Part shown: in pieces, positions 1-47,790 of the stretch
Numbering within the stretch: the first letter of the stretch is position 1
Layout of the letters: each line of letters begins with the position of its first letter
Source of the DNA: a virus
IMG/VR virus record: IMGVR_UViG_3300045988_092571
Location: 1 to 47,790 of that record
Direction: 5' to 3' (one strand)
Length of the DNA stretch: 47,790 bases
The notes under the pieces: model-generated
What the model saw: only the letters and a program-made list of their open reading frames with translations
Databases searched by the model: none
Told to the model about the DNA's origin: nothing
Position numbers and translations under genes: made by a program

Positions 1-119
1 AATAAGGTTGATTATAATTTCCAAACATACTTATTCTCCTTCTAATTGGTTATTTACACCTAAAGTATAACGAGGATAATTACTTCATTATTGATTGAAA
101 ATTGACCAAAAAAAAAAAG
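1..119. repeat. Terminal direct repeat, copy 1 (identical to 47672..47790); indicates a circularly closed or terminally redundant genome
   Basis: Base-by-base comparison: 1..119 (aataaggttg...ccaaaaaaaaaaag) equals 47672..47790, including the 11-A run. Bases 1..28 duplicate the 5' end of the CDS 47301..47699. Confidence 0.95.
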
Positions 120-139
120 AACGACTTTATGAGTCGTCC
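108..139 (-). terminator. Rho-independent terminator after the sigma-r4-like gene
   Basis: Minus strand reads ACGACT-CATAA-AGTCGT (121..126/132..137) followed by TC + T11. The stop codon of 127..420 lies in the loop. Confidence 0.75.
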
Positions 140-8244: not shown

Positions 8245-8247
8245 ATA

Positions 8248-8679
8248 CTACCACCCTCTCCAAAAAACAGTTCTAGCAGAGACGTCAATCGGTTTTATTC
8301 TTGATGAGTCTCCTTCAAAGCCTGTTGGCTCTCCCGCATTGGGGTCATCGTCTGGATAGACAGTTGCAATATCTCCTAACCCATTTTTAATAAAGTCATC
8401 AATAGCTGTTAAAAATCTATTATAATGAAAATCTCTAGGGTCTGAGTCACCATCATTAGCCATAATACTAAATGATAAATAAGGCTCAATCAATCGCAGT
8501 ACCCAAAAGTCAGGAATTGCCCAATAGTCTGTAGAGACATCTTCAAAAAATGGTAATCTAGTCTTTGCTTTTGCATTCACTTCAGCAATACCATTATTTG
8601 CCATACCTGTGATATTTGATGACGTTAAAGTCTCATCTGTCATATAATTTGAGTTGTTTACTACGTTTGTCAGTGTCAT
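8248..8679 (-). CDS. Hypothetical virion protein (possible head-tail adaptor by position)
   Basis: 143 aa. Lies between the capsid-proximal terminator and the large tail protein. RBS AAGGAGG. Confidence 0.4.
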   Translation of the reverse strand: MTLTNVVNNSNYMTDETLTSSNITGMANNGIAEVNAKAKTRLPFFEDVSTDYWAIPDFWVLRLIEPYLSFSIMANDGDSDPRDFHYNRFLTAIDDFIKNGLGDIATVYPDDDPNAGEPTGFEGDSSRIKPIDVSARTVFWRGW

Positions 8680-8695
8680 AAATACCTCCTTATAA

Positions 8696-8723
8696 TAAAA
8701 AAGAGCAACAATTATAGTTGCTC
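8696..8723 (-). terminator. Intrinsic (attenuating) terminator after the capsid / 118-aa genes
   Basis: Hairpin GAGCAAC-7 nt-GTTGCTC (8703..8723) followed on the minus strand by TTTTTT. Confidence 0.7.
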
Positions 8724-8734
8724 CTCTTTAAATT

Positions 8735-9091
8735 TTAATAACTTCCTAAAAAATCTAATGCTTCTTTAGGATTTTCATTTCGTTTCTTTTTTCCGACTTC
8801 TGCCTCAGCTTTTTTTGTAATTTTTCTTCTCACAAAAGTTGCAATCCAATCTGGAAGCATAACTGTACGTCCGTCAAAAATAAGAGTAACGGTAATACCC
8901 TGAACGGTCGTTACAAAACCATTCGGATATAATGAATGATAAATAACATCACATTTGAAAGGAACTCTCTTAACATCAGAAGCTGTTAATCTTTTTCCTT
9001 CCTGAAAATTCTGAGTATTTAATGCAGCATCAGAAGCTCCACTATCTTTAAAAATAGACTTTGATGTATTTATATTTTTATTAGATGCCAT
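8735..9091 (-). CDS. Hypothetical head-associated protein
   Basis: 118 aa, immediately downstream of the major capsid gene and upstream of a terminator. Confidence 0.4.
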   Translation of the reverse strand: MASNKNINTSKSIFKDSGASDAALNTQNFQEGKRLTASDVKRVPFKCDVIYHSLYPNGFVTTVQGITVTLIFDGRTVMLPDWIATFVRRKITKKAEAEVGKKKRNENPKEALDFLGSY

Positions 9092-9117: not shown

Positions 9118-10182
9118 TTAGTCCTGACTTGCATAGATGTCTGTTGGACGTGGTAGTGGATTAGATACAGCATGATGGATAATTGTACAAGCAGTAGGGT
9201 CTAATACTTGTGCACCATATCCCATAGTAATCCAACCTAATGATGCGATTTGTCCTAAGTTATCCCCAGGCTTAGCTTCAAAGCCAAATCTCTTCATTTC
9301 AATACCAGCTGATGCAAGGTTCATAACTGCATAAGCATTTTCACCAAATACATAAGTATGGTAAACATCTGTAGCAGTTGTTTCTTCTCCTGCACCATCA
9401 CCATCAATATCAGTACCCTTAGCCATAATTACTGGATAATTATATTCGATAAAACGAAGATTGTAAACATCATAGCTTTCTAGACCGTTGTCCATTACAG
9501 GTTTGTTAGTATTTCCTGGTACCATTGCACGTTGCAATAATTTTTCGTCATCTAACAAATCTTGCATACCTTCAACAGGTGTAACAACAATGTATCTAGA
9601 ATATCCTGCTTTTTCATGTCCTCTACGACGAGCAACTTTCATCGTATTTGCAACAATACGGCAAACATCTAATGTAAGAATGTTTGTAGCCTTAATCTTA
9701 GAGTCGTCTGGTGAAGCAGTACCAGCATCGACTACATAATATGTACCGCCATCTTCTTCAATAGCATCACGAGTAATATACTCTAATGTTTCTGAAGCAT
9801 GATTTACAATAAGTGGTCCATATTCTACTAAAAGTTGGTCTAAGTTGTAAGACTCAACTTGACGTGTTACTTCAATGTAAGCACCATATACAGCAACAGT
9901 ACCTTCAACAGTTCTAGCTCCTACTTTCATACCGTCTGGGTTTACACCTTCAGTGATGATATGTCTGTCAGCAGCTACTGGTAAAGGCTTGTAACCTCTC
10001 CATTGAACTTTGTTCGTTCCTGCATTTCTCTTTACTTCTTGTTTCTTTCCTAAGTTATAAAGAACATGGTCTTGCATTGCATAAGCAAGTGCTCTCAATA
10101 ACACGTTATTATCAATTTTGTCGTTTTGAAGCCCTGCGGCTCCTGTTCTAATTGAACTTAGAGTGTTAATAACGTCGTTCAC
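9118..10182 (-). CDS. Major capsid protein (HK97-fold; N4-gp56-like by my recollection)
   Basis: 354 aa. Follows the acidic scaffold gene. Size and position are typical. Strong RBS. Confidence 0.7.
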   Translation of the reverse strand: MNDVINTLSSIRTGAAGLQNDKIDNNVLLRALAYAMQDHVLYNLGKKQEVKRNAGTNKVQWRGYKPLPVAADRHIITEGVNPDGMKVGARTVEGTVAVYGAYIEVTRQVESYNLDQLLVEYGPLIVNHASETLEYITRDAIEEDGGTYYVVDAGTASPDDSKIKATNILTLDVCRIVANTMKVARRRGHEKAGYSRYIVVTPVEGMQDLLDDEKLLQRAMVPGNTNKPVMDNGLESYDVYNLRFIEYNYPVIMAKGTDIDGDGAGEETTATDVYHTYVFGENAYAVMNLASAGIEMKRFGFEAKPGDNLGQIASLGWITMGYGAQVLDPTACTIIHHAVSNPLPRPTDIYASQD

Positions 10183-13285: not shown

Positions 13286-13480
13286 TTAACTCTTTTTCTT
13301 GTTCAAATCTATATTTTTGTCTATATAATCCTTCTGATATTGAGGAACTCCTGCTAAAGAGTACCTTTTTTCATCATTTTTTGTGTTTTTTGACACAATT
13401 TTTTCAAATTTTTGAAAATTGTCGATGAAATAGACAAATTTTTCATAATTTTTTAAAAGAAATCTTAGTTTTTTCAACAT
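13286..13480 (-). CDS. Hypothetical small protein
   Basis: 64 aa. Overlaps the terminase stop. Lys-rich. Confidence 0.35.
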   Translation of the reverse strand: MLKKLRFLLKNYEKFVYFIDNFQKFEKIVSKNTKNDEKRYSLAGVPQYQKDYIDKNIDLNKKKS

Positions 13481-14874
13481 AATCTATAGCCTCCTGAGTG
13501 TCTTTTTCCTCTTCTTTCTCTAGCTGTTTCTTCCACAGACTCTTGGTACATATCCTTTAGCAAGGTTTTCATTGTACTTTCTCGCTGTTCTTTAGGTTTC
13601 TGGTTCATTGTTTTAAAGAAATCGGCATAACTTGCATAAGAAGTATGCTTCATATTCAAGTAGTCATAAGGAATGTCTTGGCAAATATAACGTAAGCAGT
13701 CCATTAAGTGATTATTCTTATCCAATGGCTTTTCTCCTAAGTTTTTATTCTTGTTTCGTTCCTCTTCTGTTGGATAACGATATTCACAGCCTTCCCATAT
13801 AGTGTTAGTCAAGCTTCTGAAAAACCTTACTTTTCCATTATACATCATATTTTTTACTTTTTGAATACCGTCCTCTAGTGCGTTGTTTGCTAACTTAAAC
13901 ACAATACCATGCTCAATCTGCATTTGTTGTTTATATGTTCTCGGTACAATCTGACTTCGTTTATTGGCAGACGGGTCAACTAATGGAGTATGTAACATTC
14001 CTGGAGCAATATCTTTTGTCATTTCGTAGAAAGCACTTGCTACTTGTGATGCAACTTTATTTTTCTGATAGTATTCTCTAAAAAAGTGAACAATTCCTGT
14101 TTCTGGGTCAATTGCTCCCATTAATATAGCAGCAGGGTCGTTAATTCCAGGGTCATGGGCTAAATAAACTTCCCAATTCTTCGGTATATCGAAGTCATCT
14201 TCTACCATATTTAAAATATTCGGATATACTGCACCTACTGCATACTCAATAATACAGTCAATATACAGTCTTGCTTCTTCTGGTGATAGAGACCTCTCTA
14301 CTGTCTCGACAAATCCAGGTGGTAAGTATGGATTATCTCTACTACTTGACAAAAATGCTTCAATTTCTGGGTTTGGTCTTTTGACACGGTCTTTATACAT
14401 GGCAACTGTATTCTGTATAGATGCACTACCATAAATTTTACTAGCTGTAAAAAGCAAATCTCTCAAATAACCATGAGACGGGTTAGATACTAACAGACCT
14501 ACATAATGAGAAACTCCATTAATGATGCCTGCTTTATTTCTTAGACGTCTAATACACTCTTTATAAATTTTCGGGTCTACACCGGATGCTTCTTCTATAT
14601 AGAATGCAGTAATATCCATAGAACGTATTTTTTCTTCGTCATCACTGGCAAGTCCTAAAATAGTGTGTCCATTTTTTAGAATTATCTCAATATCTTGTTT
14701 TGTATCTGTCCATTTCTCTACAAATTTTCGTGGCAAGTATTCATCAAATATTGGCATTATCGCCTTACTTAACTGCTTTAATGTCTGTGCAAACATTACT
14801 GTCTTTCCGTTCGGTACTGACAGGGCATGGTCTATAATCTCGTTTACTCCTGCACGGGACTTAGCTGAGCCCAT
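13474..14874 (-). CDS. terL: Terminase large subunit, exon 2
   Basis: Begins with the second half of the Walker A motif (MGSAKS). Walker-B-like AFYIEEASG. Nuclease-domain motifs LAHDPGINDPAAIL and DKNNHLMDCLRY. The frame is closed by TAA immediately upstream. Confidence 0.85.
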   Translation of the reverse strand: MGSAKSRAGVNEIIDHALSVPNGKTVMFAQTLKQLSKAIMPIFDEYLPRKFVEKWTDTKQDIEIILKNGHTILGLASDDEEKIRSMDITAFYIEEASGVDPKIYKECIRRLRNKAGIINGVSHYVGLLVSNPSHGYLRDLLFTASKIYGSASIQNTVAMYKDRVKRPNPEIEAFLSSSRDNPYLPPGFVETVERSLSPEEARLYIDCIIEYAVGAVYPNILNMVEDDFDIPKNWEVYLAHDPGINDPAAILMGAIDPETGIVHFFREYYQKNKVASQVASAFYEMTKDIAPGMLHTPLVDPSANKRSQIVPRTYKQQMQIEHGIVFKLANNALEDGIQKVKNMMYNGKVRFFRSLTNTIWEGCEYRYPTEEERNKNKNLGEKPLDKNNHLMDCLRYICQDIPYDYLNMKHTSYASYADFFKTMNQKPKEQRESTMKTLLKDMYQESVEETARERRGKRHSGGYRLC

Positions 14875-15607
14875 CAATTATGTTATCGTAAAGGCTCTTT
14901 ATCCTTTACTTCTGTAGTTTCTTTTCTTTATATCGACTCCATATTTTATCGTGGTTTCCTGCATACTCTAAGAACTCTTTACTAAATGTTCCCATTTTTA
15001 ATGCGTGTTCATAATTCTCACGATTTGTTACCCATTCTAAATTGGTTACTTTGTTGTTAGATTTATCACAATCTATGTGATTGACTTGAGGTAAGTTATT
15101 AGGGTTTGGTAAGAAATACTTAGCAACTAATCGGTGTACTTTGTATTTCTTTCTTCCTATTTCTACATAATAGTAACCTTTGTGGTCTTTTTGTGGTTTT
15201 ATACATCTTTTACTGAATGTACTGTAAAAGTTACCTTTATCAGAAATATAATAGTCTCCTTTTGTTTTAAGTTTACCTGCTTCATTAACAAGTTTCCAAT
15301 TTTCTTCTGAATTCATTTACATCACCTCACGTCCTAATATTACAGGTTATGTGGTGATGTTGTCAATATAAATTGTTATTTCTACAGTTCAGACTATATC
15401 TTCACCTTTCGGTGTCGGGCACTCGTGGACAGTTTATTGTTATCCGAACTCACTGTCTAGTCGTTGGACCCAATCTTAACATTGACACCTTTTCTATAAA
15501 TACCTTATAACGACTAAGATGTCAACGGATGCTAAGACCTTGGCTGCTGATTACCCACTTCTGGGCTTCCCAGCAATTCACCCGATTACGAGGCTATGGG
15601 CTATTTA
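14875..15607 (-). mobile_element. Group I intron (733 nt) carrying an HNH homing-endonuclease ORF, inserted in terL
   Basis: 5' splice site after U of GGAGGU (15608). Intron nt 8-18, CCCAU-A-GCCUC (15600..15590), can pair both with the exon 2 start AUGGG (P10) and with the exon 1 end GAGGU including U.G (P1). Intron ends in G (14875). Ligation is in frame and gives GGMGSAKS. GNRA hairpin CACC-GAAA-GGUG (15414..15403). Locally G+C-richer, helix-rich sequence. Confidence 0.8.
14906..15316 (-). CDS. HNH homing endonuclease (NUMOD4 + HNH_3-type), intron-encoded
   Basis: 136 aa. WKLV...YYISDKGNFYS (NUMOD4-like). HRLVAKYFLPNPNNLPQVNHIDCDKSNNKVTNLEWVTNRENYEH (HNH). RBS GAGGTGAT. Confidence 0.85.
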   Translation of the reverse strand: MNSEENWKLVNEAGKLKTKGDYYISDKGNFYSTFSKRCIKPQKDHKGYYYVEIGRKKYKVHRLVAKYFLPNPNNLPQVNHIDCDKSNNKVTNLEWVTNRENYEHALKMGTFSKEFLEYAGNHDKIWSRYKEKKLQK

Positions 15608-38859: not shown

Positions 38860-39115
38860 TATAATGAATTACATATCCAGTATAGGTGGGCTTCCTATTA
38901 AACAAAATCAGTTAGGAATTTATGCTCAAGCAGGTGTCCCAGACTTAATTTGCTGCGTTAAGGGGCACTTTATCGGTATAGAGGTAAAACAATCAGGGAA
39001 GAAGCCAACACCTATACAGAAGGCATTTTTGGAGGCAATAATAAGGTGTGGTGGAATTGCTTTCTATGCTACAAGTGTTGAAGAAGTTAAAGATAAATTA
39101 AAAGAGCTAGTTTGA
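38834..39115 (+). CDS. VRR-NUC domain nuclease
   Basis: GVPDLICCVKGHFIGIEVKQSGKKPTPIQKAFL = PD...(D/E)xK core plus the Q..w motif. GTG start after GGAGG. Confidence 0.7.
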   Translation: MKEQNIQTNIMNYISSIGGLPIKQNQLGIYAQAGVPDLICCVKGHFIGIEVKQSGKKPTPIQKAFLEAIIRCGGIAFYATSVEEVKDKLKELV

Positions 39116-39133
39116 ATTTCTAGCTCTTTTTCT
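39101..39133. terminator. Bidirectional terminator at the convergence of the plus and minus blocks
   Basis: Perfect 10-bp stem AAAGAGCTAG/CTAGCTCTTT (39101..39110/39120..39129) followed by TTT on the plus strand. Overlaps the stops of both convergent CDSs. Confidence 0.7.
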
Positions 39134-42100
39134 TGTATTTACAAGATTATTAAGTCTTAGCCTACTGTTATTATTTAACTCACTGATTGTAGGAACATCT
39201 ATACCTTGACTCTTCAATTCTGAAATCATTTCCTGATACTTTTCTAGTTCTTGATAGACTCGGCTATTTGCAACACGTTCTGCATTTGTATTTTGTGCGA
39301 TAGAATTTAAAATTTCAGCCCACATTTCGCTATTGGAAATATCACCGTTAAATCTATCGTAAATGGCTTTTGCTTTATCAAACACATTAGTTGTTACTGT
39401 ATCAATACCTAGTGTATTTGCTAACGTTTCTACTGTGCTTCTGTTTAGTTCATTACCTGTGAATGTATCAACACCTGTTACTTGTTCAAATGGTGTTCTA
39501 ATTAATGGCGAAGTAGAAGAAACTACTCGACGTAACGGTTCTTCTGCAAACTCACCTAAATCAGATACAGGAAGATTTAATTTCAAGTAAATACGATTAC
39601 CTTCATCATCAGACCATGGCAGTGGTAATTGGAAGTTTTCTTTCTGATACTGATAATATTCGTTCTCATCTAAATCACTATAGATACTATTATAGCCTTT
39701 AATTAGCTTATTATATTTGTTTGCATTCTTCATTAGATTAGAAGCCTGGAATAACAAGTTCTGTTTCGTAAACGTATAAAATGGAATGATTTTCTTAACA
39801 ACGTTACGTTCAAAATCACTCATATTATTTGGGTCCATTAATGCAAATCTAACAGCTTCTATAGGGCTATTAAATCCTAAATTGCTAACAAATTTAGGGT
39901 GTTCATTAGCATATTTAAGAAGTGCCATTCTGTTTAGTGAGTCAATTGCACCATTTAAGTCACCATTCATTTGAACTAATCTACTAACAACACCTTTAGA
40001 ATTTCCAGCACCTTGTAAAACTTCCTCCAAGTCTTGTAACGTTGTACCTGCATTATTAAAACCACCCTGATAGAATTGTCTAATTAAATTGTAATCATCA
40101 AGTTCTGCTTTAGTTAGTGTTTCAAGTCCATTATTAGCCTTAGCAATGATATTGTCCATATTATTTAATAGCTTAGAAGCATCTTGGTAAAGTCCAGGTA
40201 TTTGTGAAGTAGGAACTCCACTTAAAGCTAAGTTTACTGCATTACCTGTAATGTTTCTAATTTGGAAACCAGGAGTTAAAACTTTAAATTTCTTAAAAGT
40301 ATTATTGAATGAGTTTACCATTTTTAGAATAGGACTCATCTGTCTACCATCATTGAAACCAACTTTAAATAAATTAGCTAAGTTTTTATCCATATAGACA
40401 ACCTTACCATCTAAAGAATTTACAAAGTCTTGAAGTGCTGTTGAGTTTTCTGGAAGAATACCTTTAATAGCATCAACTTGTTTAGCTATCTTACTTGCAT
40501 CAACCCTTGTAAAGTTGTAAGGAATTTGACCGTCTACTAAATCATCAGCTGTCTTTATTAAGTCTGTATCGTTCAACGTACCTGTTAAAAGTGCTTCATT
40601 ATAAAGTTTAGCACCTTTTGAAGTAGCTGTAGCATTATTAATAAAGTCCTCAATTCCTGCCATAGCATCTAAATTAAATAACTCTTTACCTTGTTGACTT
40701 TCCAATACATCTGTGGCTTTCTGCAAGTTTTCTATTCTTTTTATTTTAGCAGCATCAGCACTTTCATCAAGTGCACCTATTTGAAGTTCAAAATCACGTT
40801 GCTTTTGTTTAAGTCTGCTAATTTTATCAGAAAAAGTTTCTCTAATAAGAGGTTCACTTTCTCTTAGCTTAGCATAAGCAGCACTTTGTTTGACATATCG
40901 TTCAGTAAGATTATCTGACTTATCCATAGCTTTAACAGTATCATCTATAGTCTTAAGTGCAGCATCATCAATTGTTCCTGCTATTTTTGCAGAACTTACT
41001 CTAACGTTATTTTCTAATTTAGTTATACGTTGTTCTAGTTTGGAAGCCCTATTAAGTAATGAGTCTACTTGTCTTGGTTTCAAATTATCTGAGTTTTCAA
41101 TTTGTTTTATAAGGTCATTAAATTGCTTTTTAGAGTCTGCTAATTTAGTTGTATCATTTAAGAACTTATTAGAAAGTCTTGGGTCCTGTATTTTAGAGGC
41201 TTTGTCTATAATCTTATCAGAAAGTGCATCTCTTAATGTTTGTCTTGCAGTATCTGTCTTAGTTAAAGACTCTAGCTTCTTAGCTTGACTTGCACTAAGT
41301 TTAGCCAACTTTGCATCTCTTTTAGCCTCTGTTTCTGTTATTTGTCTAGATACATCACTTATCTGTTCTTCTAAAATAGTACGTTTATTTGCTGACAAGT
41401 TCTTTTTTAAGTTATCCACAGTTCTTCTATTTCTTGAAATAGCTTCAGTAATTGCTTCCTGTGCTCTTACATTTTCAACTTCTCCTGGGTCAATTCTTGT
41501 TCTTGAAGCAAACGAATTTGGATTAATTACATTACCTCTTCCAGATGCTATGTTTCTAGCTTCCTCACCTAAATCGCCTTGTGCACGTCTAACATATCCA
41601 GGACGATTAACAATATCTGAGAAGTCTGCACCTGTTTCTTCACGGATAATTCTAGATATATCCTGATAAGCTTGTTTAGTATCATCTACTAAAGACATAA
41701 ATTCACTATTTTGTCTTAGGTCATTTATTCTCTTAAGTTGTTCATCTGTATAGTTAAGACTTCTATTTAAGTTTAAATTTCTAAATGCTTCTTGAACGTT
41801 TGGATTGTTCTTAAAGTCATTAAGTAATTTGGACTTCTTTGTATTGATGACAAGTTCTGTACCACGGTCTCCCTCTCTAATTGTATATTTTATAGATGGA
41901 TATTGGTCTAAAACATTCTTAACTTGATTAATGGACTCGTCTGTTGCACTAAGTATATTTCTTTTGTTCTTAGAACTTATATTTCTAAGCCATCTTTCAC
42001 CATCAATTGCGGTGTCCATTTCACTTTCAATAACACGTGTGATGTCCTCAGAAACTTCTTTCATGACATCGTCTACATTTCTATTTGTCCTTTGTGCTAT

Positions 42101-43057
42101 GTCATCAGCATAGCTTCTTGCTTTGTTTACTAAATTATCAAGTACCTGATTAGAACGTGTTCTAGCAAAATCAGCAGCATAAGTACTTTCTCTAGCACGA
42201 TTGACCATATTGTTAGGAAGTGCTTTTGAAGCATCAAAAACACCTGTTAGAGACCGTTTTATATTATTGTAATCAGTCAATAAATTGGACCTCTGAACAT
42301 CACTTGTTACACTTCCTGCTTGTTGAATAGCTCTGTCTAATCTACTATTTCTAGCTATATCAACTGCCCCTAGACCTTTTTGAATTAGGTTATCTGCAAT
42401 ACCTGCTCCACCTTTAACAGCCTTTCCTGCTGCTCTAAATATAGCATCAGAAGGTGAAATAAATCTAATAGACCTAGCAGCATCAGAAGCAGTATCTACT
42501 GCATTAGCTGCTTTAGCTGCTTTAGAAGCAACTCTTGCTGCATCTGCAGCAGTATCGGCTGCATTAATACCAGCAGAAACAGCAGCACTTGCTCCTCCTG
42601 TAACTGGAATTAAAGCTAAATCTACAGGGTCCGCAAACACATCTAAACCAAAACCTAGTATGTCATCAAGACCTACATCCCCAATAATACCTTGGTCTGA
42701 CATTCCAGCATTTCTAAGTAATTGACCTCCTGATGTTGTCTTATTTCCTGTTAGACCTTCAAGTGCACCTTTCCCAACATCTCCACCCGTTTGGGCTGCA
42801 TCAATTGCACCAAACAAAGCTTGCTGTGGACGTCCTAAAATCTCAAATATATCAAATAGAATATTTTGGTCGTCTGGTAAATTAAATAGCTTCTCAAACC
42901 AGTCTCTTGTATCTGTGTCTACTCCTGAAGCTGTTAATCTCGTTTTAGCATTATTAACCTGTGATTGGAGCCTATTTGAAGAACTAGAAGAAGAGGAAGA
43001 CCGAAGTCTATTAGTAGTACTTGCTAGTCTTCCCGTTACTTTACTTTTCTTAGCCAT
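39107..43057 (-). CDS. Giant 1316-aa protein (putative virion-internal/ejection protein; function unknown)
   Basis: Poly-Ser tract, Gly/Ala-rich N-terminal region (GGASAAVSAGINAADTAADAARVASKAAKAANAV), long coiled-coil middle, distinct C-terminal domain. No enzymatic motif recognised. Confidence 0.4.
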   Translation of the reverse strand: MAKKSKVTGRLASTTNRLRSSSSSSSSNRLQSQVNNAKTRLTASGVDTDTRDWFEKLFNLPDDQNILFDIFEILGRPQQALFGAIDAAQTGGDVGKGALEGLTGNKTTSGGQLLRNAGMSDQGIIGDVGLDDILGFGLDVFADPVDLALIPVTGGASAAVSAGINAADTAADAARVASKAAKAANAVDTASDAARSIRFISPSDAIFRAAGKAVKGGAGIADNLIQKGLGAVDIARNSRLDRAIQQAGSVTSDVQRSNLLTDYNNIKRSLTGVFDASKALPNNMVNRARESTYAADFARTRSNQVLDNLVNKARSYADDIAQRTNRNVDDVMKEVSEDITRVIESEMDTAIDGERWLRNISSKNKRNILSATDESINQVKNVLDQYPSIKYTIREGDRGTELVINTKKSKLLNDFKNNPNVQEAFRNLNLNRSLNYTDEQLKRINDLRQNSEFMSLVDDTKQAYQDISRIIREETGADFSDIVNRPGYVRRAQGDLGEEARNIASGRGNVINPNSFASRTRIDPGEVENVRAQEAITEAISRNRRTVDNLKKNLSANKRTILEEQISDVSRQITETEAKRDAKLAKLSASQAKKLESLTKTDTARQTLRDALSDKIIDKASKIQDPRLSNKFLNDTTKLADSKKQFNDLIKQIENSDNLKPRQVDSLLNRASKLEQRITKLENNVRVSSAKIAGTIDDAALKTIDDTVKAMDKSDNLTERYVKQSAAYAKLRESEPLIRETFSDKISRLKQKQRDFELQIGALDESADAAKIKRIENLQKATDVLESQQGKELFNLDAMAGIEDFINNATATSKGAKLYNEALLTGTLNDTDLIKTADDLVDGQIPYNFTRVDASKIAKQVDAIKGILPENSTALQDFVNSLDGKVVYMDKNLANLFKVGFNDGRQMSPILKMVNSFNNTFKKFKVLTPGFQIRNITGNAVNLALSGVPTSQIPGLYQDASKLLNNMDNIIAKANNGLETLTKAELDDYNLIRQFYQGGFNNAGTTLQDLEEVLQGAGNSKGVVSRLVQMNGDLNGAIDSLNRMALLKYANEHPKFVSNLGFNSPIEAVRFALMDPNNMSDFERNVVKKIIPFYTFTKQNLLFQASNLMKNANKYNKLIKGYNSIYSDLDENEYYQYQKENFQLPLPWSDDEGNRIYLKLNLPVSDLGEFAEEPLRRVVSSTSPLIRTPFEQVTGVDTFTGNELNRSTVETLANTLGIDTVTTNVFDKAKAIYDRFNGDISNSEMWAEILNSIAQNTNAERVANSRVYQELEKYQEMISELKSQGIDVPTISELNNNSRLRLNNLVNTRKRARNSN

Positions 43058-43068
43058 AGAAACACCTC

Positions 43069-44145
43069 CTACTGATAGTTCTTATAGTAGTCTATCAAAT
43101 ATCCTAAGTTGGTTGCTGCTTGATTGTACAAAACGTTATCTAAGTTATATTGCTCTTGATATGCTGCAATTGTATCCATAGCTGCATCATAAATTTCATT
43201 CATCGTATTTTTGTCATTTCTATTAGTACGTTTTAATTGATTAGCTGCATCATTTACAATACTATTTAAAGCATTAATACCAGCATTTTGAGTAGCTGCT
43301 GCATTAGCTCTTTGTGATGCTAAGCTTGCTGCTAAACTTGCAGCTTGTTGTCTAGCCTCTTCTTGACGAACCCGTTCATTGTATTCTAACTGAGCAATTA
43401 AATTAGCGGTATTTGCATCAATATTTTGAACATTTAGATTATATTCATTTAAAATATCATTTAGTGACTTGTCTGTATCTTCTTGAGCTTCACGAAGTGC
43501 TGTTCTAAGTGCGTCCATAGCTTGTTGATTAGCATTTGCATTTTCACTAACTTCTCTACCTTGAGCAATCAAATTTTGCAATTGTGATAACTGTTGAAGA
43601 CCACTTCCACTAATACCTCGAGAAGCTGCGTCTATCATAGTTGTTCTATCTGCTTGATATCTTGCATCTTCTAAGTCTGCTCTTGTACTAAGATAATCCT
43701 GCCTTTGTTGTTGCTGTTGAAGTGCATTCTGCTCTTGAAAACGTTTAATAGAAGTTAGTAAGTCTTGTCTTTTAGATTGATACGTTTGATTGGCTGTATC
43801 TTTTTGTGCTTGTGCTGCTTGGTTATAAGCATTAATCATAGGTGTTAAATCAATAGGACGTGCAGCAGCTACAGCTTGATTATAAGCTGAACTAGCTCCT
43901 CCTAATTGATTATTTACAAGTGAATTTAAGTCTACACCCGAACCGACGGTCACTAATTTAGATGTATCAAAGCCAGAACTTGTATTTGTATTTGTAGTTG
44001 TAGGTCGTTGATTTCTATCTGCTGTTGGTCTAGGAAGATTATTCGATGCTCCAGGTTGATTTCCAATACTGGTCGATGTTGTAAATACAGGAGTTTTAGA
44101 TTTATTACTACTTCCACCAAAAAGAATATTCCACAAACTTGCCAT
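43069..44145 (-). CDS. Gln/Ala/Asn-rich coiled-coil protein (hypothetical)
   Basis: 358 aa. RBS AAGGAGG. Co-oriented with, and 11 nt upstream of, the 1316-aa gene. Confidence 0.5.
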   Translation of the reverse strand: MASLWNILFGGSSNKSKTPVFTTSTSIGNQPGASNNLPRPTADRNQRPTTTNTNTSSGFDTSKLVTVGSGVDLNSLVNNQLGGASSAYNQAVAAARPIDLTPMINAYNQAAQAQKDTANQTYQSKRQDLLTSIKRFQEQNALQQQQQRQDYLSTRADLEDARYQADRTTMIDAASRGISGSGLQQLSQLQNLIAQGREVSENANANQQAMDALRTALREAQEDTDKSLNDILNEYNLNVQNIDANTANLIAQLEYNERVRQEEARQQAASLAASLASQRANAAATQNAGINALNSIVNDAANQLKRTNRNDKNTMNEIYDAAMDTIAAYQEQYNLDNVLYNQAATNLGYLIDYYKNYQ

Positions 44146-44182
44146 ATTTATACCTCCTTATATAGTATATAAAATCATCTAA

Positions 44183-44211
44183 AGTATATCATAAATGTCT
44201 ATAAATGTAAA
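44183..44211 (-). promoter_or_regulatory. Sigma-A-type promoter for the 358-aa/1316-aa operon
   Basis: Minus strand: TTTACA (44211..44206), 17 nt, TATACT (44188..44183), preceded by TGa. Confidence 0.65.
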
Positions 44212-44304
44212 CAAAAGCACCATGGTTGAACCACAGTGCTAGTTTAGAACCCAGAATGTTCTAATGGAATATGTTGGATTGTAGATGTCAAGTAATGCAC
44301 CTAC
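44209..44304 (-). ncRNA. Candidate small RNA unit 3 (~95 nt), bounded by promoter and terminator
   Basis: Starts ~7 nt after the TATACT at 44316..44311. Internal hairpins GUAAU..AUUAC and UAGAAC..GUUCUA. Terminator stem AGCACUGUGG/CCAUGGUGCU (44240..44216) plus UUUUGUUU. No RBS-preceded ORF. Confidence 0.5.
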
Positions 44305-44310
44305 TATTAC

Positions 44311-44339
44311 AGTATATAATATTAAAAATTTTATGTCAA
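44311..44339 (-). promoter_or_regulatory. Sigma-A-type promoter of sRNA unit 3
   Basis: Minus strand: TTGACA (44339..44334), 17 nt, TATACT (44316..44311). Confidence 0.7.
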
Positions 44340-44512
44340 TAAAATAGCACCTAGAAGGTGCTCTGGAAAAAATAAATAAATAGTGAGAGACTTCATCCAA
44401 AAAACATAAATCTGTACTTGGCTTTGACATAAAAGTTAAAATAATTGGTTTTGAAGTAAAAGTTAACCTGAAAGGTAGTTGTGTGATTACAAAAACTATA
44501 GAAATCTCTCAC
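44338..44512 (-). ncRNA. Candidate structured RNA unit 2 (~175 nt), bounded by promoter and terminator
   Basis: The predicted TSS G (44512) opens a 12-bp helix: GUGAGAGAUUUC (44512..44501) pairs with GAAGUCUCUCAC (44394..44383), with one G.U. Terminator AGCACC-UUCUA-GGUGCU (44362..44346) plus AUUUUAUU. Internal duplicated UUAACUUUUA. Confidence 0.5.
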
Positions 44513-44518
44513 ATATTT

Positions 44519-44547
44519 AATATAACATATATCGAACACTTTTTCAA
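44519..44547 (-). promoter_or_regulatory. Sigma-A-type promoter of RNA unit 2
   Basis: Minus strand: TTGAAA (44547..44542), 17 nt, TATATT (44524..44519), preceded by TGt. Sits in a tandem 11-bp duplication ACTTTTTCAAT x2 (44538..44559). Confidence 0.65.
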
Positions 44548-44556
44548 TACTTTTTC

Positions 44557-44645
44557 AATAAAAAATGACTACGGAGCATTGAGTCATCTTTTATCACCAT
44601 AAAACTGGAAGTGTAAATGAAACACCAATTATAGGAATAACCTAC
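44557..44645 (-). ncRNA. Candidate small RNA unit 1 (~90 nt), bounded by promoter and terminator
   Basis: Starts ~7 nt after the TATACT at 44657..44652. Terminator ATGACT-11 nt-AGTCAT (44587..44565) plus UUUUUAUU. No RBS-preceded ORF. Confidence 0.45.
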
Positions 44646-44651
44646 ATCTAA

Positions 44652-44680
44652 AGTATAGCATAAAACAACTTAAAAATCAA
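44652..44680 (-). promoter_or_regulatory. Sigma-A-type promoter of sRNA unit 1
   Basis: Minus strand: TTGATT (44680..44675), 17 nt, TATACT (44657..44652), preceded by TGc. Begins 4 nt after the tRNA CCA end. Confidence 0.65.
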
Positions 44681-44683
44681 TAT

Positions 44684-44760
44684 TGGAGCACCATACCCGA
44701 ATTGCACGAGTGTCTATTTGATTTGCAGTCAAATCGGCTTCGCTTCTTGCCTAATGGTGC
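44684..44760 (-). tRNA. tRNA-Cys(GCA): tRNA-Cys(GCA)-like gene with encoded CCA and non-canonical D and T loops
   Basis: Minus strand: GCACCAT-TA-GGCAAGAAGCGAAGCC-GA-TTTGA-CTGCAAA-TCAAA-TAGAC-ACTCG-TGCAATT-CGGGT-ATGGTGC-T-CCA. Perfect 7-bp acceptor stem. 5-bp anticodon stem with loop CU-GCA-AA. 5-bp T stem. Discriminator U73 and an A13.A22 mismatch, as known for tRNA-Cys. The D loop lacks GG and the T loop is UGCAAUU instead of UUCRANY. Confidence 0.65.
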
Positions 44761-44787
44761 ATATTTAAGGGAATTACTCCCTTATAA

Positions 44788-45144
44788 TTATTTTACAATC
44801 CAAACATATTCTGCTTCTCTTTCCGTACAATCAAATGTATCATAGATATTACCATATTTTGAGCAAGTTATATGCCCTATCATAGTTATCAATAATACAT
44901 TATCTGGGTATAAACTAGAAATGTAGCCAACTGTTCCTTTTGTATAAGGCAATCTGTCATAACGTCTGTCTAAATAGTCTATAATAAACTCCCTGTCGTC
45001 CATCATAGTACCTTGAGCTTGTGCTATATCACTTAATTTTTCATATACATAATCCCAACTTTTACCAGTTGCACATGAAATAGCCCTTATAGTACAGTCT
45101 GAAATGTTTTTGCCCCTTACATTTGCATTATAATATTTATACAT
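44788..45144 (-). CDS. Hypothetical protein with papain-like Cys/His arrangement (possible cysteine peptidase fold)
   Basis: 118 aa. N-terminal NISDCTIRAIS motif, later MIGHITC and D residues. The family resemblance is from memory only. Confidence 0.35.
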   Translation of the reverse strand: MYKYYNANVRGKNISDCTIRAISCATGKSWDYVYEKLSDIAQAQGTMMDDREFIIDYLDRRYDRLPYTKGTVGYISSLYPDNVLLITMIGHITCSKYGNIYDTFDCTEREAEYVWIVK

Positions 45145-45659
45145 TACATTTGACTCATTTCATGAACAGTACGTTCTAATAGTTTTTCTTCTTCTGGAGT
45201 GGAAGCATTCTCCCTTAGGAACTTAGTATATTCTTTTAGAGACTTAAGCATCAACTTATAGCTTTCCATAGTATCCTGGTCAGCACCATACATTTCTTTT
45301 CCTTCTGAATAGTTACCATAATGATAGCTCATCTCATCAAGCATATCTTCTCCACGATAGCCTCGTCCTGTTCCTGGGACACCACGTCTACCGTATGCGT
45401 CTCCTTCCATGTATCTGCCTCTAGAGTCTCTTCTACGACGACCGTATCTGTCATCTCCATACATATATCTCATATTGTCCTCCTTTTCTTTCCAATACTC
45501 TTCATTTTCAATATCTTTATGAATATCAATCATTTTATACAGAGTTGTAATATCTTCACTTTTTATTCCTTTATCAAGAATGTCTTTCATCATTCTTTCC
45601 ATTTCTTCTTTTAAGCGATGTACTACAGGTTTTTCTTCCTTTTCATTCATACTTATCAC
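45144..45659 (-). CDS. Hypothetical Arg/Gly/Tyr-rich protein
   Basis: 171 aa. Central RYGRRRRDSRGRYMEGDAYGRRGVPGTGRGYRGED low-complexity tract between helical acidic ends. Confidence 0.5.
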   Translation of the reverse strand: MISMNEKEEKPVVHRLKEEMERMMKDILDKGIKSEDITTLYKMIDIHKDIENEEYWKEKEDNMRYMYGDDRYGRRRRDSRGRYMEGDAYGRRGVPGTGRGYRGEDMLDEMSYHYGNYSEGKEMYGADQDTMESYKLMLKSLKEYTKFLRENASTPEEEKLLERTVHEMSQM

Positions 45660-46118
45660 CTACGATTTCTTTGTAATTGAAATGTTTGCGTTTTGAATTA
45701 CTGGAACTTCTGTAACTGTTGTCGTTCCTGGTGTAGTAGCACCTGTTAAAATACTAGGCACTGCTTGTACTGTTAATGTAGTGTTACCATTACAACATAC
45801 ACGAAGTTTCTTGTCGAATGATACATTTACATAGTCCCCTGTTGTTGTGATTTGTGCAATTACTGTCGTTCCAGGTACTAATACACCGTCTTGATAAAGT
45901 CCTAAAGCGACTGCTCCTGCAACTGATGATGTAACATTAGCATTGAATGAAACTTCATATATTCCACCACACAATATTTTGTATAGAGGAGAACCTTCAT
46001 TATGTTGTAACCAATTACAACAATTAGCACTTCTCGTTCTTAAATCGTCAACACTAAATGATACTGGAGCAGAATTGCTAGTTAATGCTGTGATAGGCTC
46101 TAAAACACTTTGTATCAT
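45660..46118 (-). CDS. Hypothetical beta-rich protein with CC pairs (TNF/C1q- or BclA-C-terminal-like pattern)
   Basis: 152 aa. ...GGIYEVSFNANVTSS..GAVALGLYQDGVLVPGT... resembles jelly-roll C1q/BclA-CTD strands. Cys pairs NCC and VCC. Confidence 0.4.
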   Translation of the reverse strand: MIQSVLEPITALTSNSAPVSFSVDDLRTRSANCCNWLQHNEGSPLYKILCGGIYEVSFNANVTSSVAGAVALGLYQDGVLVPGTTVIAQITTTGDYVNVSFDKKLRVCCNGNTTLTVQAVPSILTGATTPGTTTVTEVPVIQNANISITKKS

Positions 46119-46133
46119 ATTATCAATCCTTTC

Positions 46134-46168
46134 TTATAAAAAATAAGAGATAGGGCTTGCCTATCTCT
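46134..46168 (-). terminator. Intrinsic terminator between the 262-aa and 152-aa genes
   Basis: 9-bp stem AGAGATAGG/CCTATCTCT (46146..46154/46160..46168) with a 5-nt loop, followed on the minus strand by TATTTTTTAT, only ~17 nt before the next start codon. Confidence 0.65.
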
Positions 46169-46172
46169 GTTT

Positions 46173-46188
46173 AGGACATATATGTCCT
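46173..46188. repeat. Perfect 16-bp palindrome AGGACATATATGTCCT
   Basis: Self-complementary, immediately upstream (in the minus sense) of the terminator hairpin. Confidence 0.8.
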
Positions 46189-46231
46189 TAGCAAGTCCCT
46201 GTAATTAGGTTAGTCTATTAGACCAATGCTA

Positions 46232-47020
46232 TTAAATTACTGTTCCATTACAACCGCACGTGCTATAGCAACAGTTCGGGTTTGGAACAACGTATGCTGG
46301 GCTTGGGCATGGTTTTAACTGATTAATCAAGTACGTATTTTGTGCTTCTTGACTTGCTCTTAAACGTAGAGCATTGATTTCATTTTGTTGTGCTGCAATT
46401 TGTGCGTTCTTATCTTCAATACGGTTAGCAAGAATTTCATCATGCAATGCACGATAATTTGCGTTCTGATTGTCGATGATGTCTCTAGTGTTGTTACATA
46501 ATGTTTGTTGAATAGCATTTGTATTCATAGCCATATTGTAATTAATTCCGTCGAGACCACGTTGTGTTTGGCAGCAGCAATCAGAAATTTGTTGACGAAT
46601 ATCACAGCAACAATTTGCTAACTGACTAGATAATCCTTGAACCCCTAAACGAGTTTCATAGCCATTTGTAGTGATTGCTTGATTAATACCACTGAAACCT
46701 TGGCATAGTGTCTGTTGCGTTGCTGCAAAACCATTTGTCATAGTGTTGTTTAGTGCAAAAGTGCTATCACAAATACCATTTGAAATCGTATCTAGTTTTC
46801 TATCAACCTGTGCGAAATCACTAGCTAAAACATATCCGTCTGCAACTCCACCAGAGTTTCCGCCGAAGCCACCGCCAAATCCGTTTCTTCCAAATCCAAA
46901 GATTAAGAATAGAATTATAATCCAAGCATAGTCATTACCCCAGCCATTGTTATATCTTCCATTACCAGCATTACCTGACAATACTGCCACATCTGCTGGA
47001 GAAAGAACACCTTCGTTCAT
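46232..47020 (-). CDS. Membrane-anchored Gly-rich, cysteine-cluster protein (hypothetical)
   Basis: 262 aa. TM segment YAWIIILFLIFGF, then GFGGGFGGNSGG. Two CCC triplets (NCCCDIRQQISDCCCQ). C-terminal PCPSP...NCCYSTCGCNG. Gln/Asn-rich coiled coil. Confidence 0.55.
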   Translation of the reverse strand: MNEGVLSPADVAVLSGNAGNGRYNNGWGNDYAWIIILFLIFGFGRNGFGGGFGGNSGGVADGYVLASDFAQVDRKLDTISNGICDSTFALNNTMTNGFAATQQTLCQGFSGINQAITTNGYETRLGVQGLSSQLANCCCDIRQQISDCCCQTQRGLDGINYNMAMNTNAIQQTLCNNTRDIIDNQNANYRALHDEILANRIEDKNAQIAAQQNEINALRLRASQEAQNTYLINQLKPCPSPAYVVPNPNCCYSTCGCNGTVI

Positions 47021-47073
47021 ATTGTTTCCTCCTTATAAATTATCTATATCAAGCTACCTAGGTTAGCTGATAC

Positions 47074-47298
47074 CTATTTAAAATTGTTCATAAACTCAGA
47101 AAATTCCTCGTCAAAATTTCTTCCTTTTTCTTTAAAAAGATTTCTAGCGAAATTTTCTAGTCCTTTTGTATCTCCTTTATTAGCCATATCTATTAGGTTT
47201 CCCATAACAGGATTATTAGAACTAATAGACTTTTTAATTAAATCTGGGATATTTCCTCCCTTACTTATAAATGTTTTTAAAGGTTCTAAATTATTCAT
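47074..47298 (-). CDS. Small helical hypothetical protein
   Basis: 74 aa. Overlaps the stop of the upstream gene. Confidence 0.45.
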   Translation of the reverse strand: MNNLEPLKTFISKGGNIPDLIKKSISSNNPVMGNLIDMANKGDTKGLENFARNLFKEKGRNFDEEFSEFMNNFK

Positions 47299-47300
47299 AA

Positions 47301-47699
47301 TTAATCTCCTTTAGCATTTAAAGTATCTGTGATACTTTTAAGGTTGTCTTTTAGTTTTTGAATGTCATCTTCAATACGTGACAAATCGTCACTTGTTAAA
47401 TACTTTGTAACATGACTTCCTTCTGTTGTAGGTTTATATACAACGGTTTTACTTGTTCCATCATTCTGTAGTTGTTTTGTAACAATGGCACTTCCATCAG
47501 TTAATGGAAAATAACTAATACTTCCATCTAAAGGAATATCCATTGCTCGAACTACATCAATACTGTCTACTGACTTTCCCAAAAGTCCTGCCGGTTTTGT
47601 GAAATTGTTCGTATTATATTGAGGATATTGTGGCTCCATAGGTTGTGTTCTCTGTATCTGTGGTTGCATATAATAAGGTTGATTATAATTTCCAAACAT
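47301..47699 (-). CDS. Hypothetical protein with Gln/Pro/Tyr-rich N-terminus
   Basis: 132 aa. MFGNYNQPYYMQPQIQRTQPMEPQYPQYN low-complexity head, a globular core (DIPLDGSISYFPLTDGSAIV) and a C-terminal coiled coil. RBS AAGGAGA. Its start lies in the terminal repeat. Confidence 0.55.
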   Translation of the reverse strand: MFGNYNQPYYMQPQIQRTQPMEPQYPQYNTNNFTKPAGLLGKSVDSIDVVRAMDIPLDGSISYFPLTDGSAIVTKQLQNDGTSKTVVYKPTTEGSHVTKYLTSDDLSRIEDDIQKLKDNLKSITDTLNAKGD

Positions 47700-47790
47700 A
47701 CTTATTCTCCTTCTAATTGGTTATTTACACCTAAAGTATAACGAGGATAATTACTTCATTATTGATTGAAAATTGACCAAAAAAAAAAAG
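47672..47790. repeat. Terminal direct repeat, copy 2 (identical to 1..119)
   Basis: Same comparison as copy 1. Confidence 0.95.

Follow-up and report, generated by a model that had tools for sequence, protein, structure and literature searches.

Six genes and a tRNA-Cys gene lie together on one strand of IMG/VR virus record IMGVR_UViG_3300045988_092571, which we analyzed over its whole length of 47,790 nucleotides (the window). We number the genes g1 to g6 in the order in which they are read and refer to the group as the cassette (Table 1). The two ends of the window are identical (bases 1–119 equal bases 47672–47790, an assembly overlap of 119 nt in a record that is a k119 contig), indicating a circular genome of 47,671 bp in which the cassette follows the phage lysis genes across the junction. 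An earlier note, made from the letters of the window, had placed six co-oriented genes at this position and had treated them as one module of spore-surface-like composition. The open reading frames (ORFs) are there, all on the minus strand, and the idea of a single module is borne out by comparison, as the same gene families recur together, on the same strand, in 165 related loci. A gene set that is absent elsewhere, named in the note as an outcome that would count against the module, is thereby clearly contradicted.

These loci come from phage and metagenome-bin contigs, and all of their ORFs were searched with iterated profiles for each gene. The product of g3, the signature protein of the cassette, was accompanied by g1 in 139 loci (always directly upstream of g2 or g3), by g5 in 132, by g6 in 111, by g4 in 109, and by g2 in 102 (always between g1 and g3). 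Cassette genes were always encoded on one strand and followed one of two orders: type A, g1-g2-g3-slot 4-g5-g6, which is the order of the window with g4 in slot 4, or type B, g6-g1-x-g3-g4-g5, often followed by a DUF7841 gene. Judged by gene order, the six genes and the tRNA-Cys gene are one portable phage operon, and the conserved synteny rules out a chance clustering of orphan ORFs. The extra conserved type-B gene encodes about 105 amino acids (aa) and stands after g5 at positions 9677–9997 of one locus (L042) and in about 20 other type-B loci. Nine of the slot-variant proteins that were scanned match Pfam DUF7841 (best E-value 1.5e-36), and we assign this match to the extra gene by size and position.

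Two positions of the cassette are filled by interchangeable proteins, as counted in the 114 loci with full flanks. The peptidase slot held the papain-like g6 in 79 loci and an HExxH metallopeptidase in 22; nothing was detected in 13, and both enzymes were never found together. The HExxH enzymes are 104–131 aa long and match Pfam SprT-like, DUF6782, or M78. Because the enzyme that takes the place of g6 is of another catalytic class, proteolysis is likely to be part of what the cassette does. Slot 4 held g4 in 80 loci and an alternative Cys-rich beta protein with an N-terminal CxxxCxxC in 31, whereas neither was present in 3 and both never occurred. Aligning the two slot-4 families by hhalign gave a probability of 1.4%, and we therefore treat the alternative family as unrelated to g4 rather than as a divergent copy; its profile retrieved nothing from the PDB.

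The tRNA-Cys that had been described at the end of the module is a conserved part of it. A same-strand tRNA-Cys(GCA) follows g6, usually by 11–40 nt, in 41 of 69 type-A loci and in 0 of 35 type-B loci, and all 43 tRNA-Cys genes found across the 165 loci adjoin the cassette. The window proteins contain 14 (g3), 5 (g4), and 4 (g6) cysteines, with none in g1, g2, or g5, and the cysteine content of g3 is 5.3%, compared to 1.15% for the rest of the proteome. The linkage illustrates cleanly how a phage tRNA can be tied to a single operon and its amino-acid demand.

Contigs that carry the cassette span 37–146 kb and include crAss-like and recoded phages. Two cultured phages are among the carriers, Butyrivibrio virus Ceridwen (MN882553), in which g6, g1, g3, g4, and a g5-like gene follow a lysin gene and two small genes, and Clostridium perfringens phage CPD1, which has g1, g2, and g3; both make the cassette experimentally accessible. 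A g3 of full architecture is also encoded by Bacteroides phage C3_41T2LP and by crAss-like phages such as cr52_1. Genes adjoining g3 in the Bacteroides phage were negative against the g1 and g4 profiles in hhalign, so for phages of Bacteroidota we claim g3 and not the whole cassette. Hits to g3 in genomes fall almost entirely on phage-sized contigs binned with Clostridia, Oscillospiraceae, Lachnospiraceae, Bacilli, and a few Bacteroidota, with one in the cultured isolate Muriventricola aceti. Given the taxa in which carrier contigs are binned, the host of the window phage is probably a low-GC Firmicute.

The upstream neighbor is co-oriented with the cassette in 135 of 157 loci, and endolysin and amidase families dominate there (50 non-redundant loci); the downstream neighbor is co-oriented in only 83 of 162. 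The cassette usually closes the late block. In Dulem virus 35 and in one further locus (L061) it lies among head genes, in some other phages it lies among virion genes, and in CPD1 and C3_41T2LP the g3 gene has genes for replication and recombination around it. In another locus (L017), the gene immediately after g6 is a holin homologue. Side observations on the carriers concern recoding and insertions. In cr52_1, the g3 homologue and its neighbor contain in-frame TAG codons (L003, 5545–7526), and ORFs of several jumbo-phage loci are fragmented under the standard code, the recoding loci being L047–L053, L062, L071, and L074–L076. Free-standing homing endonuclease genes (HNH_3/NUMOD4, and one LAGLIDADG) have inserted between cassette genes several times, in unrelated carriers (Table 1).

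The cassette proteins

The g3 protein begins with an acidic N-terminal tail of about 30 aa, a hydrophobic segment flanked by W and G (AWIIILFLIFGFG), and a Gly tract. Next come a ladder of cysteines that includes an invariant CCC, a helical stretch with the pattern NANYRA...ASQ.AQN, and PCPxPAYxVPNPNCCYxxCGC at the C-terminus. The GFGGGFGG tract, the two CCC triplets, and the C-terminal CCxxxCxC to which the earlier note had drawn attention are all present. Over 123 sequences, the hydrophobic 15-mer has a mean Kyte-Doolittle value of 2.0, the N-terminal tail has a net charge of −2.2, and the C-side flank of the segment is more positive than the N-side flank in 85%. If the segment is a membrane anchor, this charge bias would leave the large domain facing the cytoplasm.

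The g3 family is large. It comprises at least 7,948 clusters at 90% identity in a large protein database and at least 1,574 representatives at 50% identity, the best 150 of which are 73–333 aa long and show no domain fusions. We confirmed 300 relatives in IMG/VR and 130 in a species-representative genome set, which was scanned with a narrower alignment. The only PHROG match of g3 is to phrog_16490 (1.6e-36), whose function is unassigned; no holin or spanin PHROG matches it, and it lacks a lipobox. When the PDB was searched with g3, the single sequence gave noise and the profile gave coiled-coil noise. When 38 diverse g3 sequences were compared to Pfam, no CotY/CotZ/ExsY or CdeC-type family appeared at E≤0.01; a Baculo_PEP_C match by 1 of the 38 (3.5e-4) was set aside as coiled-coil noise. 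The N-terminus did not match YjcZ in Pfam or NCBIfam, and PADLOC returned for g3 only a chance-level ZorA match (E 0.0057 at 13 bits).

The g4 protein consists of a Cys-bearing N-terminal arm of about 32 aa, modeled at low confidence (predicted local distance difference test score, pLDDT, mostly <50), followed by a jelly roll like those of TNF, C1q, and the C-terminal domain (CTD) of BclA. The AlphaFold2 model has a pLDDT of 72.8, with 80–90 in the core. Compared to the PDB by Foldseek, it gave 179 matches at E≤1e-3. The top twelve were to BclA-CTD, F-BclA, and BxpB, with E-values of 5.6e-7 to 6e-6 and template modeling (TM) scores of 0.58–0.72, and were followed by ExsFA, TNF ligands, and C1q domains. 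Pfam BclA_C (PF18573) matched the window protein at E about 7e-5 and 23 bits, below the gathering threshold of 38 bits, and matched 15 of 32 members of the g4 family at E≤0.01 (best 5e-7). Against PDB sequences, the g4 profile found only BclA entries (E 0.2–0.95), and the single g4 sequence found noise. The predicted structure thus gives g4 the TNF/C1q jelly-roll fold of the BclA C-terminal type, which had been proposed for this 152-aa protein from its strand pattern and which both the Pfam and Foldseek results uphold. The Cys-Cys pairs named at the same time are at residues 32–33 and 107–108; in the family, C107 is invariant and C108 nearly so. We found no GXY collagen-like repeats in g4 and no exosporium-leader match in NCBIfam. 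In a library of viral structures, the best matches of g4 were uncharacterized gut-phage proteins of 130–143 aa, and next came much longer proteins, many of them named as collagen-repeat or tail-fiber proteins.

A DC...GH arrangement in g6 had suggested a papain-like peptidase. The arrangement is present (D16-C17 and G90-H91), and residues N6, N8, D16, C17, R20, H91, and D102 are invariant among 70 sequences that share 29–98% identity. In an AlphaFold2 model with a pLDDT of 92.7, Cys17 is at the N-terminus of a helix (residues 17–26), and His91 and Asp102 are on consecutive strands (residues 91–96 and 99–102). Although this confident model has the Cys/His/Asp layout of a papain-like enzyme, no fold match was significant (best Foldseek E 0.44). 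Papain-like folds nevertheless recurred among the weak matches, with TM scores of 0.35–0.49; these included Tse1, Tae4, 6mpz, PCAT1, C39 double-glycine peptidases, UfSP, PLpro, and deubiquitinases. We consider g6 a candidate for a small papain-type cysteine peptidase, and its mutually exclusive replacement by HExxH enzymes in 22 loci lends indirect support to such an activity. It belongs to phrog_3754 (5e-14), has no Pfam match, and gave only noise in sequence searches of the PDB. Relatives of g6 also occur as stand-alone genes, among early genes of Geobacillus phage GBK2, of large Bacillus phages, and of Lak megaphages. Neighbors of stand-alone relatives include genes for Ocr, a Ser/Thr kinase, RecT, and SSB.

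The remaining three proteins, g1, g2, and g5, were unmatched in Pfam, and comparing every member of the g1 family and of the g2 and g5 families to Pfam revealed no recurrent family. The g1 protein has a variable head rich in Q, P, Y, and N (22 of the first 32 residues), a small conserved beta domain (GKxVxSxxxVKAxDIPLDGSxxYFP..TKQL..DGT), and a C-terminal helix with a strong heptad pattern; the Q/P/Y-rich head and a coiled coil had already been remarked upon. In g2, the conserved pattern is NP..NL..MA..G..E.FARN..KE.G.DFD.EF. The g5 protein, in which RYGRRRRDSRGRY and GRGYRG had correctly been pointed out, has two helical end regions joined by a low-complexity linker rich in R, G, Y, and D and is acidic overall (isoelectric point 5.3). 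In eight loci (L030, L033, L096, L097, L104, L111, L112, and L122), g5 is divided at the R/G/Y-rich linker into two ORFs of about 64–77 aa and 116–136 aa, a hint that each helical half can function as a polypeptide of its own. The linker may be a target of the peptidase in the unsplit versions.

For the cassette proteins of the window, NCBIfam and PADLOC gave nothing relevant and Pfam gave only the match of g4 to BclA_C. Weak matches to IpaC, TrsD, ZorA, BTB, and NYD-SP28 in these searches were judged to be chance. As had been observed, the standard families of structural, lysis, and replication proteins in PHROGs, Pfam, NCBIfam, and PADLOC have no match among the cassette genes. The proposed links to CotY/ExsY/CdeC, GerQ, and YjcZ did not survive beyond amino-acid composition, as neither Pfam nor NCBIfam returned such a match for g1, g2, g3, or g5. 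We found no published description of the cassette in the literature, and depositors call its genes hypothetical. Names under which g3 has been deposited include 'spike protein/glycoprotein' and 'outer capsid protein/viral fiber', and these have the look of automatic assignments based on coiled coils; two depositors name g6 relatives from large Bacillus phages simply 'peptidase'.

Expression signals and surroundings

A hairpin with a T-run that directly follows the stop codon of the last gene ahead of the cassette probably ends the lysis transcript just upstream of g1; the T-run itself is within the assembly overlap (108–118 equal 47779–47789). Between this hairpin and g1, a decamer that resembles a −10 element, TATACTTTAG, probably serves as the cassette promoter. 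The genome has just three unique exact copies of the decamer, all on the minus strand. Besides the copy ahead of g1, one is located just past the tRNA-Cys gene (44648–44657) and one ahead of the gene for a 358-aa protein (44179–44188), and the element may be a promoter component shared across the phage. A copy with one mismatch is found at 1701–1710, about 80 nt upstream of the endolysin start.

Strong ribosome-binding sites, which had been ascribed to the module as a whole, are present as GGAG-type sites for g1 to g4, whereas the site of g5 is weak. The internal terminator that had also been reported corresponds to a hairpin, AGAGATAGGCAAGCCCTATCTCT, with a T-run in the 113-nt spacer between g3 and g4, and an equivalent hairpin and T-run occur in 86 of 122 distinct spacers between g3 and slot 4 in related loci. 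This hairpin is probably a leaky attenuator that lowers the expression of g4 to g6 relative to g1 to g3, and its retention suggests that the products of g1 to g3 are made in excess over those of the later genes.

Genes on the minus strand of the window start with an HNH endonuclease, which is directly upstream of the large terminase, and continue with the portal, a 271-aa gene, and the major head protein. Several ORFs without matches, the tail proteins, the M23 endolysin, the holin, and the 97-aa gene come next, and the order ends with the cassette, the tRNA-Cys gene, the 358-aa gene, and a 1316-aa gene. No tape-measure-like gene was found between the head and tail genes (window 5578–9091 and 13474–15316), and an 888-aa ORF and two small ORFs in this interval had no match in PHROGs, Pfam, or the PDB; for these reasons the layout looks podovirus-like. 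In the gene for a 407-aa tail protein, positions 4789–5102 contain three tandem units of about 105–111 nt (62–73% identity), probably a repeated fiber or beta-helix module.

Downstream of g6, the tRNA-Cys gene lies in an unusually long non-coding stretch (44146–44787, 640 nt). This stretch also contains terminator-like hairpins at 44346–44362 and 44216–44240, a sigma-70-like promoter matching at 11 of 12 positions (44311–44339), and a sub-threshold Rfam match to the small RNA SpF36 (44547–44596, E 0.6). Beyond it are the two large co-oriented ORFs (39107–44145, minus strand), whose products are a Q/N/A-rich protein of 358 aa and a protein of 1316 aa with a Ser-run N-terminus and a long helical middle. 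Neither protein contains cysteine, and searches of PHROGs, Pfam, NCBIfam, and the PDB gave no match to either. A role in ejection or inside the virion is possible for them, and distant relatives (24–30% identity) follow the cassette in four other loci (L006, L007, L013, and L017).

Table 1. Positions of the cassette, its signals, and nearby lysis genes in the window, and of homing endonuclease genes inserted in related loci.
Feature	Position	Strand	Remarks
g1	47301-47699	(-)	132 aa
g2	47074-47298	(-)	74 aa
g3	46232-47020	(-)	262 aa
g4	45660-46118	(-)	152 aa
g5	45144-45659	(-)	171 aa from GTG; public gene call starts at ATG 45650 (168 aa)
g6	44788-45144	(-)	118 aa; start overlaps g5 stop by one base
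tRNA-Cys (anticodon GCA)	44684-44760	(-)	ARAGORN; Rfam 44.7 bits; 27 nt downstream of g6
Hairpin (GGACGACT..AGTCGT) and run of 11-12 T	108..139	(-)	directly after stop codon of 97-aa gene; read from sequence; probable end of lysis transcript
TATACTTTAG, -10-like decamer	47731..47740 (= 60-69 in overlap)	(-)	about 30 nt upstream of g1 start; likely cassette promoter
Terminator-like hairpin AGAGATAGGCAAGCCCTATCTCT and T-run	46136..46168 (hairpin 46146-46168)	(-)	g3-g4 spacer of 113 nt; probable attenuator
97-aa HTH-like (helix-turn-helix) gene	127-420		last gene ahead of cassette
Holin (Phage_holin_5_2)	420-728		upstream of cassette
M23 endolysin	738-1619		upstream of cassette
Homing endonuclease insertions	L011 8883-9701; L014 8841-9365; L040 6422-6985; L084 8088-8948; L085 6041-6688		between cassette genes of related loci

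What the cassette may build

What the sequences show is which genes travel together and in what order, the folds and the active-site pattern, the exchanges at two slots, the attenuator, and the linked tRNA; from these we infer how abundant the products might be, how they might assemble and be cross-linked or bind metal, which partners might be cleaved, and when and where the cassette might act. The reading that we prefer, at a probability of roughly 0.35, is an accessory structure that is made in abundance, assembles by itself, is linked through cysteine, and is processed to maturity by the peptidase of the cassette. Transcription of g1, g2, and g3 would start from a promoter immediately behind the lysis terminator. 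The g3 protein would be the major product, a stalk or anchor with a single hydrophobic segment, a helical body bearing the Cys ladder, and a Pro/Cys-rich C-terminal knot, and g1 and g2 would be its obligate partners. The conserved leaky terminator would lower the expression of the minor parts. Among these, the slot-4 protein would be a less abundant and exchangeable head, either a BclA/C1q-like trimer or the unrelated Cys-rich beta protein, with g4 attached through its flexible Cys-bearing N-terminal arm. The g5 protein would act as an R/G/Y-rich helical helper, and the peptidase, papain-like here and a small zinc enzyme in other phages, would trim at least one other part. The phage tRNA-Cys would cover the unusual demand for cysteine. 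The product would be made late and would be destined either for the particle, as a fiber or decoration, or for the membrane's inner face, at the site of particle maturation.

This proposal draws on five sets of results. The genes behave as one unit across the 165 loci, and proteolysis is integral to it, supplied by g6 or an HExxH enzyme and never by both. A structural flavor comes from the match of g4 to BclA-CTD, BxpB, and ExsFA, from its matches to viral proteins with fiber names, and from the exchangeability of slot 4. Abundance and a high demand for cysteine are suggested by the Cys content of g3, the linkage to tRNA-Cys, the strong ribosome-binding sites of g1 to g4, and the conserved hairpin. 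Late expression is suggested by the endolysin and amidase neighbors upstream, by the place of the window cassette between the lysis genes and two more large ORFs of like orientation, and by the head-gene context in Dulem virus 35 and L061.

Several observations weigh on the other side. No cassette protein matches a known virion, lysis, or scaffold family in PHROGs, Pfam, or NCBIfam, and our literature search found neither a virion proteome nor transcript data for any carrier phage. The wide range of carrier contig sizes, with crAss-like and recoded phages included, is awkward for a part that docks onto one capsid or tail. The g3 segment is transmembrane-like, with a charge bias that suggests that the bulk of the protein is cytoplasmic, and no N-terminal signal peptide was seen by eye in its partner proteins. 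Stand-alone relatives of g6 are found among early or host-takeover genes in GBK2 and large Bacillus phages, and the fold match of g6 is not significant. Finally, because the cassette has its own promoter-like site after the terminator, its timing is not given by that of the lysis genes.

Many of these points fit instead an intracellular, membrane-tethered scaffold or host-takeover complex that never leaves the cell with the virion. This explanation is nearly as likely as an accessory structure, and still less than probable in its own right. Cytoplasmic cysteines of g3 would bind metal rather than form disulfides, and g1, g5, and the g4 trimer would form a matrix on g3 that organizes replication or assembly or sequesters a host factor, while the peptidase would cleave a host or phage target. 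The hydrophobicity of the g3 segment, its charged flanks, and the absence of signal peptides from the other cassette proteins agree with this picture, as does the occurrence of the cassette irrespective of phage size and type and of g3 in phages of different host phyla. So do the promoter-like site after the terminator, the position of g3 among replication and recombination genes in CPD1 and C3_41T2LP, and the company that stand-alone g6 relatives keep with Ocr, Ser/Thr kinase, RecT, and SSB genes. However, the viral TNF/C1q-like domain is otherwise found mainly in collagen-repeat or tail-fiber-named proteins; a slot 4 with interchangeable occupants, a tRNA-Cys, and an attenuator behind g3 would suit the production of structural protein in bulk better than they would suit a regulator; and the upstream context consists mostly of late and lysis genes.

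We assign a small probability to the idea that phages of gut anaerobes carry a portable kit for building a spore-coat-like layer or fibers on their particles, cross-linked through cysteine and perhaps through tyrosine. In such a kit, a lattice or stalk rich in Cys would support a BclA/ExsFA-like trimer, a dedicated protease would carry out maturation, and the whole would be a viral counterpart of the exosporium. Were this true, particles could be locked while exposed to oxygen on their way from one animal host to the next and be released once they meet the reducing conditions of the gut.

Control of lysis or egress comes next and is unlikely. The g3 protein would be a large single-pass holin-like or lysis-timing protein, the other products its regulators, and the peptidase the trigger. 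The position of the cassette directly after holin and endolysin in the window, the predominance of endolysin and amidase families upstream, the holin homologue directly after g6 in L017, and the placement of the Ceridwen cassette after a lysin and two small genes all invite such a role. The layout of g3 is also comparable to that of T4 holin T, which has a short N-terminal tail, one transmembrane segment, and a large C-terminal domain with a disulfide. Yet in many Firmicutes phages the position behind the lysis genes just marks where the late block ends, and in several phages the cassette is far from lysis genes, with head genes in Dulem virus 35 and with replication genes in C3_41T2LP. Moreover, the window already has a recognized holin and endolysin, g3 matches no holin or spanin PHROG, and we know of no lysis system that combines a TNF-like trimer, low-complexity proteins, and a dedicated tRNA.

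Less likely again is an internal head cargo with its own maturation protease, packaged and injected in the manner of the T4 internal proteins or the adenovirus core proteins; a cysteine protease cleaves the latter. The cassette nearly always includes a dedicated peptidase, which can be of either of two catalytic types, the two large unmatched ORFs after the cassette could encode ejection proteins, and the Bacteroides phage has a gene annotated as a PolyVal metallopeptidase near its g3 gene. The Arg-rich tract of g5 might suit such a cargo, but the protein is acidic overall. A transmembrane-like anchor and a TNF-like trimer would not be expected among cargo proteins, and most loci show no tie to portal or scaffold genes.

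A device that targets or mimics spores, with proteins that would become part of a sporulating host's exosporium or spore coat or would resemble it, was among the roles raised by the earlier note and is very unlikely. Its appeal lies in the best structural matches of g4, which are all to Bacillus spore-surface proteins (BclA, F-BclA, BxpB, and ExsFA), in a composition rich in Cys, Q, and R/G/Y, and in the many carrier contigs binned with Clostridia. The carriers themselves speak against it, as a near-complete cassette is present in a Butyrivibrio fibrisolvens phage and a full g3 in a phage of Bacteroides uniformis and in crAss-like phages, the hosts of which are not known to sporulate. No cassette protein matches CotY/ExsY, an exosporium leader, or YjcZ in Pfam or NCBIfam, and the TNF/C1q fold is common in other phage and giant-virus proteins. 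A defense system was rejected on the absence of a PADLOC match and on the phage context, and a locus for a bacteriocin or a ribosomally synthesized and post-translationally modified peptide was rejected since neither a modifying enzyme nor a transporter is encoded and the g3 proteins are uniform, at roughly 230–330 aa.

Whichever product is made, the families concerned are sizable. Like g3, the g4 and g6 families contain thousands of clusters at 90% identity; the three have no Pfam model or annotation, we found no paper on them, and they are among the larger blocks of unexplained gut-virome sequence. The cassette also looks like a working machine, with a fixed gene order, two slots that accept interchangeable unrelated proteins, a conserved attenuator, and its own tRNA. 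If the accessory structure that we prefer is a particle-surface or protective one, it would bear on the persistence of strict-anaerobe phages, on their passage from one animal host to another, and on their contact with mucus and the immune system. An intracellular scaffold would represent a new way for phages to organize infection.

Comparison with known systems

As a whole, the cassette matches no known kind of system, although its parts include a TNF/C1q fold and probably a papain-like fold. The closest structural parallel is to the exosporium of the Bacillus cereus group. The g4 protein is a TNF/C1q jelly roll of the same size as the BclA-CTD, F-BclA, BxpB, and ExsFA domains that are its best PDB matches, has a flexible N-terminal arm, and is encoded beside a Cys-rich partner. 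BclA assembly involves N-terminal trimming, which removes residues 1–19, and a Cys-rich partner layer (PMC12357932). Unlike BclA, g4 has no collagen-like repeats or exosporium leader, and its BclA_C score stays under the Pfam threshold. No relation of g3 to CotY/ExsY was detected, and the genes are phage-borne and also occur in phages of non-sporulating hosts. We regard the parallel as a resemblance in how parts might work and not as evidence of family membership.

C1q/BclA-like domains form the C-terminal knob of some phage and giant-virus fibers, and the fold of g4 was matched in collagen triple helix repeat, L-shaped tail fiber, and C1q-domain proteins of this kind. In the cassette, by contrast, the domain does not terminate a long fiber but makes up a 152-aa protein of its own, and g3, the candidate stalk, has a hydrophobic anchor and a Cys ladder. 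No tail-fiber or decoration PHROG was matched.

For g6, the comparison is to papain-like clan CA enzymes such as C39, Tse1, and Tae4, with which it shares a Cys at the start of a helix, His and Asp on following strands, a conserved upstream Asn, and a domain of about 120 aa. The weak Foldseek matches are repeatedly papain-like, and none is significant (best E 0.44, TM scores of 0.35–0.49). No sequence match was found in Pfam or the PDB.

The architecture of g3, a short N-terminal tail, one hydrophobic segment, and a large helical C-terminal domain encoded near the end of the late region, recalls phi29 p16.7 and T4 holin T. The former is a membrane-anchored replication organizer with one transmembrane segment. 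No sequence relation to either is known, and g3 differs from both in its richness in Cys, its invariant CCC, its Pro/Cys C-terminus, and its 4–5 fixed partner genes.

Endospore appendages of the Ena and F-ENA types, built of jelly-roll subunits that are joined through N-terminal arms, provide the last comparison. Subunits of Ena1A/B are Cys cross-linked. For F-ENA, a description is given in PMC12357932. The g4 protein differs in having no Pfam match to DUF3992 or DUF4183, and Ena is absent from its top 50 Foldseek matches. Like these subunits, however, g4 is a small beta-sandwich with a conserved Cys in its N-terminal arm and Cys in its core, a layout that, by analogy, suits covalent head-to-tail or head-to-stalk linkage. 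Should the cassette turn out to make a virion fiber or decoration, it would count as an atypical version of something already known.

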